From contig JAAXKQ010000010.1 in NCBI GenBank assembly GCA_025612245.1, forward strand, positions 75,228 to 139,227: a stretch of DNA of 64,000 nt, written 5' to 3'. Positions 44,906 through 45,244 of the stretch are shown here, piece by piece. Source of the stretch: Ignavibacteria bacterium. GTDB lineage: Bacteria > Bacteroidota > Ignavibacteria > Ignavibacteriales > SURF-24. Position numbers and translations under genes: made by a program. The notes beneath the pieces are model-generated. The model saw nothing but the letters and a program-made list of their open reading frames with translations, did not search any database and was not told the DNA's origin. The first letter of the stretch is position 1, and every line of letters starts with the position of its first letter.

Positions 44906-45244
44906 ATGTCCGGAGGTAATGAATCCCCATCATGTGGCGGCGGCGGAGTAAATGTTGGCGGAACTGATTGTGCCAATATCTTACAAAAGACAGTTCTTAA
45001 TTCACCAAATCCAAATGTAATCAAAAAACTAAAAAAAGGAGAAAATCTTGGGATCGAACTGATTACTCCCAAGGGACCACTGGTAGCCAAAACCGTGGCT
45101 GGAGAAATAGCGGGTTCAATAACATCTGCAATTCTTCATAAACTGATAGATTGTATAAGTAATAATTACAGTTTTATTGCAATTGTCATAGAAATCAGCG
45201 GAGGGAAGTGCACTGTTGAGGTGAGGTCAGCAAATGGAGATTAA
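44906..45244 (+). CDS. Small protein with Ser/Gly/Cys-rich N-terminal tail and HIRAN-like domain
   Basis: GGAGG RBS; MSGGNESPSCGGGG tail; LKKGE.L.I.....LVA....IAGSI.....LI.CI...YSF.A.V pattern (fold call tentative). Confidence 0.65.
   Translation: MSGGNESPSCGGGGVNVGGTDCANILQKTVLNSPNPNVIKKLKKGENLGIELITPKGPLVAKTVAGEIAGSITSAILHKLIDCISNNYSFIAIVIEISGGKCTVEVRSANGD

Follow-up and report, generated by a model that had tools for sequence, protein, structure and literature searches.

What is the role of a protein of 112 residues that begins with M-S-G and a Gly/Ser-rich arm, and whose gene lies two genes upstream of a gene encoding a QueC-like enzyme? This question is raised by the open reading frame (ORF) located at positions 44906..45244 (+) of a stretch of 64,000 nucleotides from an Ignavibacteria bacterium (assembly GCA_025612245.1, contig JAAXKQ010000010.1, positions 75,228 to 139,227), the whole of which is referred to below as the window. 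A preliminary description of the window had proposed the small protein as a likely substrate of the QueC-like enzyme. From a computational analysis of both families, we consider it probable that the small protein is indeed the N-terminal substrate of this enzyme. It is regarded as a dedicated partner and acceptor because the two genes co-occur, because an invariant M-S-G opens its disordered tail, and because its co-fold with the QueC-like protein reaches 0.88 when the best control reaches 0.00. The proposal is thus retained, with evidence that is in silico throughout.

The small ORF is a real gene and not a chance frame, since a profile search among 1.84 billion representatives detected 1325 relatives at E≤0.001 (815 of them at E≤1e-10) and since a homologue is found in the same position in 127 of 128 QueC loci. 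A word-indexed protein search returned only 6 relatives, all starting with MSG, so that the family looked rare that way, and scans of Pfam, PADLOC and NCBIfam gave no family match for the small protein. Its translation starts with MSGGNESPSCGGGGVNVGG in the ORF listing, exactly as previously described, and the strong ribosome-binding site reported at that time is confirmed by a Shine-Dalgarno sequence GGAGG at 44897..44901 (+), read from the sequence and separated from the ATG by a short spacer of 4 bases. The gene is the second of a tightly packed block of five genes, all on the (+) strand, that encode an OGG-like protein, the small protein, a PfkB-type kinase fused to a nucleoside 2-deoxyribosyltransferase-like domain (PfkB-NDT), the QueC-like enzyme and a SagB-like protein. 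The small gene and the PfkB-NDT gene overlap by 11 nt, the PfkB-NDT and QueC-like genes by 4 nt, and the QueC-like and SagB-like genes by 14 nt.

The distribution of this cassette was followed in loci collected via the QueC-like protein (80 from genomes, 80 from metagenomes and 4 from viral contigs; the counts on 160 loci below combine genomes and metagenomes), the ORFs of which were scored by phmmer and by hidden Markov models built from the five proteins of the window. Among the first 80 genome loci, QueC is present in 80, PfkB-NDT in 79, the small protein in 75, and SagB and OGG in 55 each; the five loci devoid of the small gene are all cut at a contig end. In the 160 loci, the corresponding numbers are 160 for QueC, 152 for PfkB-NDT, 132 for the small protein, 127 for SagB and 110 for OGG. 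The 128 loci mentioned above are those having at least 1800 nt upstream of QueC. The sole exception with an ample upstream flank, L142 (QueC at ~5968), is devoid of both the small and the PfkB-NDT genes, and its QueC gene is followed by SagB. The order small protein, PfkB-NDT, QueC is observed in 130 of 132 loci, and SagB directly follows QueC on the same strand in all of the 125 loci carrying it. In the 125 loci that could be scored for both (of the 160), SagB and OGG are found together in 105, neither is found in 15, SagB occurs alone in one and OGG alone in four. Because of these locus counts and this gene order, the small protein, PfkB-NDT and QueC are defined as a three-gene core, and SagB and OGG as an optional pair.

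The QueC-like protein itself is represented by 1565 clusters at E≤1e-10, mostly of 195-200 aa and sharing ~55% identity; counted at 90% identity, the clusters are more than 1500. The hosts belong to the Proteobacteria, Bacteroidota, Planctomycetota, Verrucomicrobiota, Acidobacteriota and Campylobacterota, among others; the cassette is also present on a Haloferax plasmid and on the four viral contigs, which come from IMG/VR.

The feature that designates the small protein as an acceptor is its N-terminus. The six close homologues all start with MSG, and the consensus of the tail is M-S-G-S-G-G-G. Among 149 listed representatives, 118 start with MSG, 4 with MTG, 4 with MSS, 2 with MCG and 5 with MG; three others are read as 'VS' from a GTG codon, and the remainder are mostly over-extended calls with an internal MSG. 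A G-rich Shine-Dalgarno sequence is found at the matching position in all eight related loci that were read. Five of these eight contain in-frame upstream Met codons (for example MGGES-MSG) and, since these codons overlap the Shine-Dalgarno stretch, MSG is taken as the true start. Residue 2 is a Ser in 113 of 126 called loci, the others having Gly (8), Thr (2), Ala (2) or Cys (1). These five amino acids all permit the removal of the initial Met, according to the accessible text of the study on QatB (PMC13279940). Over 109 of 111 deduplicated loci, the tail has a median length of 20 residues (quartiles 17-29) and a Gly plus Ser content of 54%.

In the protein of the window, the proposed acceptor N-terminus and its Gly/Ser-rich disordered arm correspond to residues 1-22 (44906..44971, +), and residues 23-112 with the stop codon (44972..45244, +) form a compact domain. 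An AlphaFold2 model computed from 86 homologues has a mean predicted local distance difference test score (pLDDT) of 86.6, with blocks of ten residues averaging 61 and 51 over residues 1-20 and at least 92 in each block from 21 to 110. The flexible tail ahead of a compact domain that had been read from the sequence is therefore also what the model predicts. With Foldseek, the top matches of the compact domain are 3k2y (E 8e-4), which we take to be a HIRAN-family protein, and structures of the HIRAN domain of HLTF with DNA (E ~3e-3). Alignment with VIA-align gives Z 12.0-12.1 with 3k2y (root-mean-square deviation 2.1-2.2 over 88-89 residues), Z 8.5-9.2 with the HIRAN domain of HLTF, Z 8.0 with that of Rad5 and Z 7.9 with the C-terminus of the Hachiman protein HamB. 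A structure search independent of Foldseek recovered the same top three (Z 12.0, 8.7 and 8.0), the next unrelated fold being at 5.9. A literature search for 3K2Y with HIRAN found nothing. The compact domain, in its modelled form, is HIRAN-like by fold only: the match with the HIRAN domains of HLTF, Rad5 and Lactobacillus lp_0118 (PDB 3k2y) extends over the whole domain, but the identity is only 8-12% and the conserved surface of the small protein is the one turned towards QueC in the prediction.

HIRAN domains bind DNA 3'-OH ends. The small protein could accordingly be imagined as a sensor of DNA ends that controls the QueC-like enzyme and keeps an unmodified N-terminus, an explanation which would account for the Z values of 8-12 with HIRAN structures solved with DNA, for the DNA glycosylase of the cassette and for the DNA methyltransferase found in 38 of 160 loci. 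We hold it to be very improbable: the most conserved surface of the domain is predicted to face QueC and not DNA, the domain is near neutral, and the invariant M-S-G on a flexible tail is left unexplained. Combined with the presence of OGG and methyltransferase genes, the HIRAN-like fold suggests that the cassette may operate on DNA.

Concerning the other conserved residues of the small protein, Cys83 (45152-45154) is invariant in the alignment of 86 sequences, and Cys22 (44969-44971) and Cys102 (45209-45211) are consensus residues. The three cysteines are also present in the loci without SagB that were inspected by eye, and they are for this reason probably structural residues rather than targets of SagB. 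In a Haloferax plasmid locus devoid of SagB and OGG (L065:3607-4776), the small protein reaches 389 aa, starts with MGG and contains a very long acidic linker rich in Asp and Glu and two tandem HIRAN-like domains.

The proposed ligase is the QueC-like PP-loop ATPase of 198 aa encoded at 46433..47029 (+), recognized by PF06508 with 95 bits and by the QueC model of PADLOC with 64.7 bits. In an alignment of 20 homologues, the residues S8, G9, G10, D12 and S13, the cysteines C170, C177, C180 and C183, and the residues R86, H117 and D119 are invariant. The sequence includes the motifs LSGGMDS and DYGQRPAEAE and, at the C-terminus, CHKDIYACGMCRGCFK. The latter fits the motif CH(x)5CxxCxGCxK of the QueC enzymes published as Cluster 4, with a spacing from YGQ to Glu one residue shorter than printed. 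By its sequence, the enzyme matches this Cluster 4, with which it shares, according to the accessible parts of Libby et al. 2026 (PMC13329287), the motifs SGGxDS, YGQ and CH(x)5CxxCxGCxK, a length ~10 residues below that of canonical QueC and a PfkB-NDT neighbour; the main text of that article does not mention the small protein. When aligned with canonical QueC (2pg3), the residues PFRN match the VPxRN motif, with RN conserved, and the residues S-V-H117-K-D119-G match S-G-Y-P-D-C, with the Asp of the YPDC motif conserved.

These motifs have a bearing on the carboxylate that the enzyme may use. In type IV CBASS (a cyclic-oligonucleotide-based antiphage signalling system), the QueC-family enzyme Cap9 holds the base through an Arg together with the Tyr and Asp found in these motifs, as far as the available text of the preprint goes (10.1101/2025.04.06.647259), and QatC is described as having lost the RN and YPDC-type motifs in the consulted part of PMC13329287. 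A guanine-like donor is plausible for the QueC-like enzyme, and more so than for QatC, because the positions of these base-holding motifs are kept here and lost in QatC. A canonical QueC is also encoded in the same genome; therefore 7-carboxy-7-deazaguanine (CDG) should be available. On these sequence comparisons, we judge the case for a CDG-like donor to be evenly balanced.

An association of the QueC-like enzyme with the small protein was predicted by co-folding. The QueC-like protein (alignment of 20 rows) and residues 2-112 of the small protein (86 rows) score 0.88 (runs of 0.88, 0.89 and 0.88), and the best of three controls scores 0.00. Of 80 solved complexes, 58 reach the mark applied, against 2 of 110 mismatched pairs, figures which are a rough guide only since our own alignments were used here. 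Contact agreement between the runs is at least 98%, and the partner pLDDT is at least 83. The predicted interface comprises, on one hand, residues 37-44 and 161-198 (the Cys-rich C-terminus) of the QueC-like protein and, on the other hand, residues 27-36, 53-60, 68-77 and 98-101 of the small protein, blocks that are the most conserved of its family (around TxLNSP, AGS and GG). The tail, residues 2-26, is not among the confident contacts. That the score reflects a memory of solved complexes seems less likely, because the partners in the solved Cap9-CdnD and QatBC complexes have other folds. The co-fold supports, as a prediction, a complex between the two proteins in which the HIRAN-like domain would dock on the zinc-ribbon of the enzyme.

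The gene located between these two partners has suggested to others a different function for the enzyme. The PfkB-NDT protein (400 aa, 45234..46436, +) matches PF00294 over residues 149-249 and PF05014 over residues 277-369, and the closest solved relatives of its C-terminal half are nucleoside 2-deoxyribosyltransferases (7m5h and 6evs). In the accessible text of Libby et al., a PfkB-NDT is reported in ~89% of the neighbourhoods of Cluster 4 QueC and a purine salvage is proposed (PMC13329287). Cluster 4 QueC and PfkB-NDT could accordingly salvage or build a free (deaza)purine nucleoside, with the small protein as an accessory subunit or chaperone, and both PfkB and NDT are ordinary folds of nucleoside metabolism. 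This metabolic pathway appears improbable to us, since it is hard to see why a salvage enzyme would require a partner whose disordered Gly-rich arm opens with an invariant M-S-G. It would also have to be reconciled with the attached DNA glycosylase, the Dam-like methyltransferase of 38 of the 160 loci, a patchy distribution across many phyla that extends to a Haloferax plasmid and viral contigs, and neighbours related to defence and mobility in the window and elsewhere.

These neighbours were identified by family models. The window contains, upstream of the cassette, a DrmC-like phospholipase D (PLD) protein (37762-39024), a PD-Lambda-1-like protein (39650-41428), a PDC-S21/DUF4917 protein (41507-42490) and a fusion of an Mrr nuclease with an M78/IrrE-like peptidase (42544-43854) and, downstream, an AriA/OLD-like ATPase (49384-51285). 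A survey of the neighbours elsewhere covered 121 of 202 candidate ORFs, from 31 of 52 other loci. The recurrent families among these 121 ORFs are D12 methyltransferases (9), integrases (5), Mrr (5), dGTPases (5), AAA_15/AAA_21 ATPases matching the GajA/AriA/PtuA models (5) and AbiEi (4), and type II methyltransferases are also recurrent. Because of these defence and mobile neighbours, the cassette is better described, from its gene content, as a mobile anti-phage module than as a housekeeping salvage pathway, its function in defence being what this setting suggests. The Mrr-M78 gene was considered as a further member of the cassette and rejected, with one weak match in 160 loci.

The two optional proteins are related to enzymes acting on DNA and on azolines. 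The OGG-like DNA glycosylase/lyase homologue (251 aa, 44118..44873, +) matches PF22175 (Ogg-HhH, E 8e-18) and NCBIfam NF002305 with 77 bits, under the equivalog cut-off of 183; its closest solved relatives are 8-oxoguanine glycosylase/apurinic-apyrimidinic lyases of the archaeal type (E 1e-7). In 38 of the 160 loci, a Dam-like N6-adenine methyltransferase of the D12 class is coupled to the OGG-like gene and located immediately upstream of it; the window is devoid of one. From this coupling, the optional module could be one that acts on DNA and possibly labels self. The methyltransferase genes are found in convergent as well as same-strand layouts (for instance L007:8026-8835 on the (-) strand and L106:2685-3563 on the (+) strand).

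The SagB-like protein (227 aa from the ATG at 47016, a start which aligns with the homologues; 47016..47699, +) is a homologue of the SagB-type dehydrogenases dependent on flavin mononucleotide (FMN) of TIGR03605. With a profile of 26 cassette homologues, the solved relatives are ThcOx/CyaGox (5e-18), BmdC (2e-14) and McbC (1e-4), uncharacterised nitroreductases being interspersed among them. The model (pLDDT 91.6) has ThcOx as its top Foldseek match (E 2.5e-12, TM 0.82), followed by two uncharacterised nitroreductases, then by BmdC and McbC. The residues R49, S93, G95, Y167, R176 and G179 are invariant in the 26 homologues, and the conserved blocks are PSAGG.HP and WRDxG. A Lys-Tyr motif marks the azoline oxidases; Y167 is presumably its Tyr, and a Lys precedes Y167 in many of the sequences, including that of the window. 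In comparison with ThcOx/CyaGox, McbC and BmdC, the protein thus shares the SagB-type FMN fold, with its best profile and fold match among them; its gene likewise adjoins that of the enzyme proposed to make its substrate, and the proposed site is a Ser or Thr. No YcaO (PF02624) was found in the cassette or in the genome of the window, which is 97% complete. The SagB without YcaO that had been noted at the start is consequently borne out, with TIGR03605 passed narrowly. In this respect the cassette differs from the thiazole/oxazole-modified microcin (TOMM) systems and related peptide pathways, since it has no YcaO, no E1-like protein and no cyclisation (Cy) domain of a non-ribosomal peptide synthetase as a cyclodehydratase, and since a single site at the extreme N-terminus would be modified with a carbonyl from a nucleobase carboxylate, not from a peptide bond.

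Does the SagB-like protein act on residue 2? The canonical QueC performs, in its second step, an ATP-dependent activation of an amide oxygen, formally what YcaO does. Because of this step, the idea of the preliminary description, an amide on Ser2 closed to an oxazoline by the QueC-like enzyme and oxidised to an oxazole by SagB, is chemically attractive; the mass shifts then calculated are arithmetically right (+176.033 for the amide, +158.023 for the azoline and +156.007 for the azole). It had been further expected that Ser2 is invariant and occurs with SagB. In the loci with SagB, residue 2 is a Ser in 99 and a Thr in 2, and never Gly, Ala or Cys; 24 loci are left without a call, nearly all on cut contigs. 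In the loci without SagB (with at least 1500 nt downstream), Ser is found in 14, Thr in 0, Gly in 6, Ala in 2 and Cys in 1, with 4 left without a call. When near-identical proteins are collapsed, Ser or Thr versus any other residue is 86 versus 0 with SagB, and 12 versus 9 without it. The raw Fisher test of SagB against residue 2 gives a p value of 8e-8, which ignores the relatedness of the loci. The loci having OGG and lacking SagB carry Ala (L054), Glu (L058), Gly (the viral locus L167) or Ser (L098/L102 and L166) at this position, L058 starting with M-E-G-G-G after a good Shine-Dalgarno sequence and L167 with MGG, both being read by hand. Because of these loci, the constraint on residue 2 appears to follow SagB and not OGG.

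An amide made by the QueC-like enzyme on Ser2 as the only product, SagB performing another redox reaction (on the base, on the nucleoside or on a small molecule) and its link with Ser being due to ancestry, is a serious contender that falls a little short of an even chance. Cap9 stops at the amide, according to the accessible text of its preprint; uncharacterised nitroreductases (3hj9, 3hoi and 8cqs) score near the azoline oxidases; and the joint gain or loss of SagB and OGG (105 loci with both, 15 with neither and 5 discordant) suggests a joint downstream role. Conversely, none of the 101 called loci with SagB has Gly, Ala or Cys, residues that the loci with OGG and without SagB can have, the best solved relatives of known function are all azoline oxidases, and the SagB gene always directly follows the QueC gene and overlaps it. 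Its replacement by another oxidase in the cassettes devoid of SagB was considered and rejected, the ten downstream genes scanned being heterogeneous (two AAA_15/21 ATPases, a DUF4435 protein, a methyltransferase, an HD protein, a Clp-like protease and four without family).

Several results weigh against the small protein as a substrate of QueC and against the extension of this reading to SagB. The position that carries Gly in the Met-Gly acceptor motif is conserved in the small proteins, but as a Ser for the most part. The M-S-G rule itself has an exception in a Verrucomicrobial locus that contains both SagB and OGG (L066:4395-4778), where the small ORF has no Met before S-G-G-G: it starts with MLQLYRLCRPLYSGSPGHDH (MLQLYR...), ~20 residues before this run, and the codon before the Ser is CAT. 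The database protein P0227 has a similar extension of 20 residues and likewise no Met before S-G-G-G. L066 is either an exception to the rule or a processed, misread or unusual start. In the 86 homologues, Pfam at E≤1 gave scattered noise only (PUA_4 in 5 of 86) and no HIRAN, and the median net charge of the domain is +1. Concerning the donor, the Tyr and Cys of the YPDC motif are replaced by His and Gly in the QueC-like enzyme. The preliminary description had cited both Cap9 and QatC as enzymes that attach CDG to an N-terminal Gly; this is shown for Cap9 but was overstated for QatC, which in the accessible part of PMC13376578 has no ATP pyrophosphatase activity in vitro with CDG, its first substrate being given as unknown. 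The only paper mentioning Cluster 4 QueC, as far as its text was accessible, reads it as purine salvage (PMC13329287). The words nitroreductase, SagB, Ogg and glycosylase have 0 occurrences in the main text of this article, the supplements of which may list such neighbours, and a literature search for the cassette found no description besides that of Libby et al.

The extension to SagB is limited by the small number of independent events. SagB passes TIGR03605 by a margin of 1.4 bits (79.8 bits for a cut-off of 78.4). The start-calling rule accepted only M-[SGTCA]-[GSN]; other starts were at first scored as not called, before being examined by hand. Of the 23 loci without SagB, 14 retain Ser2, so that this residue has some role, or some past, that does not depend on SagB; the sole locus with Cys2 is also devoid of SagB. 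SagB and OGG are nearly always gained or lost together, so that few loci separate them. In a concatenated tree of QueC and PfkB-NDT (108 rows), SagB changes 8 times and the class of residue 2 changes 4 times, namely ~3 losses of Ser and 1 reversal, all on branches without SagB. These branches represent 29% of the tree length, which gives a crude branch-length p value of ~0.02 that is not a formal test. Six independent pairs were obtained from the concatenated tree, with 1.2 changing the same way, 0 the opposite way and 4.8 unchanged (sign test with a median p of 1, 6 pairs being too few for significance), and the QueC tree alone has only 2 independent pairs on supported branches. A metagenome scan seeded with QueC from the Gly2 and Ala2 lineages returned mostly Ser2 cassettes with SagB. 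The expected association is thus clear in the raw counts (99 Ser and 2 Thr in 101 loci with SagB) and weaker when the ~3 independent losses and L066 are considered. An oxazoline then an oxazole at Ser2 is consistent with the counts and unproven, and we regard it as doubtful, although a real possibility.

In the QueC-like protein, only columns 11, 67 and 166 separate the lineages with SagB, all of them weakly; column 67 is the clearest and is confounded by ancestry. Its residue Asp67 (46631-46633) is present in 95% of 87 cassettes with SagB, in 6 of 12 cassettes with Ser2 and without SagB, and in 2 of 9 cassettes without Ser2.

With the small protein as the probable substrate of QueC, the following course of reactions can be proposed. 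Its chemistry throughout, the nature of the acyl donor and a function in defence are all inferred. Met1 would be removed, exposing Ser2. With its HIRAN-like domain seated on the C-terminal zinc-ribbon of the QueC-like enzyme, as in the predicted complex, the small protein would use its tail of ~20 Gly/Ser-rich residues as a flexible arm. The enzyme would adenylate a carboxylate, most likely of the 7-deazaguanine type (CDG), and join it to the alpha-amine of Ser2, in the manner of Cap9 with Gly2 of CdnD. The SagB-type flavoenzyme may then act on the Ser-linked adduct, the simplest reaction being the conversion of an oxazoline, formed from the amide and the hydroxyl of Ser, to an oxazole. The NDT domain would attach a (deoxy)ribosyl group to the tethered base at its free N9 and the PfkB domain would phosphorylate the tethered nucleoside, so that PfkB-NDT would take the place held in type IV CBASS by Cap10, related to tRNA-guanine transglycosylase (TGT). 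Finally, the OGG-like enzyme could remove, edit or reverse the product. The complete scheme, in which the QueC-like enzyme uses both ancestral ATP steps, SagB makes an oxazole, PfkB-NDT completes a nucleotide on a HIRAN-fold carrier acting on DNA in the defence against phages, and OGG and, in some lineages, the Dam-like methyltransferases provide editing or self-protection, is an unlikely one to hold in all its parts.

The same enzymes could also build a small molecule on the small protein used as a scaffold, a heterocycle or nucleoside formed from the base and Ser at the N-terminus and then cut off as a signal or toxin. The combination of a SagB-type enzyme and a short Ser-Gly N-terminus that is conserved brings to mind the logic of the ribosomally synthesised and post-translationally modified peptides, and the kinase and glycosyl-transfer domains could complete a nucleotide-like product. 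The conserved cassette contains no protease, however, a Clp-like protease being seen once among the ten genes after cassettes devoid of SagB, and in place of a leader peptide the small protein contains a folded domain that is large and conserved; such a released product seems to us highly improbable.

The small protein as an acceptor of QueC can be compared with two published defence systems. In type IV CBASS, according to the accessible text of the preprint, Cap9 attaches CDG to Gly2 of CdnD (NDG, +176 Da), the MGGS start of which belongs to a disordered tail beginning GGSGGS; Cap10 resembles a TGT and Cap11 an OGG (10.1101/2025.04.06.647259). The cassette shares with it a QueC enzyme of ~190-200 aa, a partner with a disordered Gly/Ser-rich tail starting with Met, a small residue and Gly, an OGG-like gene, a setting in defence islands and a second enzyme, from a base-exchange family, whose position would allow it to modify the tethered base. 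It differs by the absence of CD-NTase (cGAS/DncV-like nucleotidyltransferase) and of a TGT-like Cap10 when the five proteins of the cassette are scanned with Pfam and PADLOC, by an acceptor of 112 aa that is HIRAN-like and has Ser2 instead of Gly, by PfkB-NDT instead of Cap10, by the addition of the SagB-type flavoenzyme and by HKDG instead of YPDC. Concerning QatABCD, the consulted part of PMC13279940 reports that QatB has a tail of 30-90 residues carrying an MGTS motif that is essential, and gives the QatC reaction as unresolved. QatBC and the cassette share a QueC-family enzyme and a small partner, bound to it in QatBC and predicted to bind it here, with a conserved N-terminal motif on a long tail, but QatC has ~400 aa with extensions versus 198 aa here, QatB is helical with MGTS, and the cassette includes neither the QatA ATPase nor the QatD nuclease of the TatD type. 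A preprint on nitrilobacillin, in its accessible part, describes an ATP-dependent formation of nitrile and has no bearing on the cassette.

Some additional features of the loci were observed. A second pair of small and PfkB-NDT genes lies in tandem beside the first cassette in L051:10649-12584 (where QueC is also duplicated), L071:1351-2873 and L166:6603-8143; in L166, this second pair occupies the usual position of SagB. In the window, a terminator scan detected a GC-rich hairpin with a perfect stem of 10 bp at 47929..47952, on both strands, as a consensus match only. Located ~230 nt past the SagB-like gene, it is a possible two-way terminator closing the operon, and is followed by ~500 nt without convincing ORF and then by an ORF of 151 aa at 48475-48930 (-). 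A promoter scan of the window remained at chance level, with 21 found versus 17.9 expected.

The attachment of a deazaguanine to a protein has been shown only recently, for Cap9 and CdnD. If the small protein does serve as substrate for the QueC-like enzyme, the cassette would represent a third and widespread family in which a QueC enzyme acts on a protein tail (1325 clusters of the small protein and more than 1500 clusters of the QueC-like protein), differing from the others in the acceptor residue, in the HIRAN-like fold of the acceptor and in the downstream enzymes. It supplies a concrete candidate acceptor for an enzyme cluster now annotated as a metabolic QueC. The cassettes with Ser2 and SagB, with Ser2 and without SagB, and with Gly2 and without SagB form a natural series in which the chemistry can be compared. 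Should SagB carry out an azoline oxidation, these cassettes would contain a route to azoles free of YcaO and a new bond between a protein and a nucleobase.

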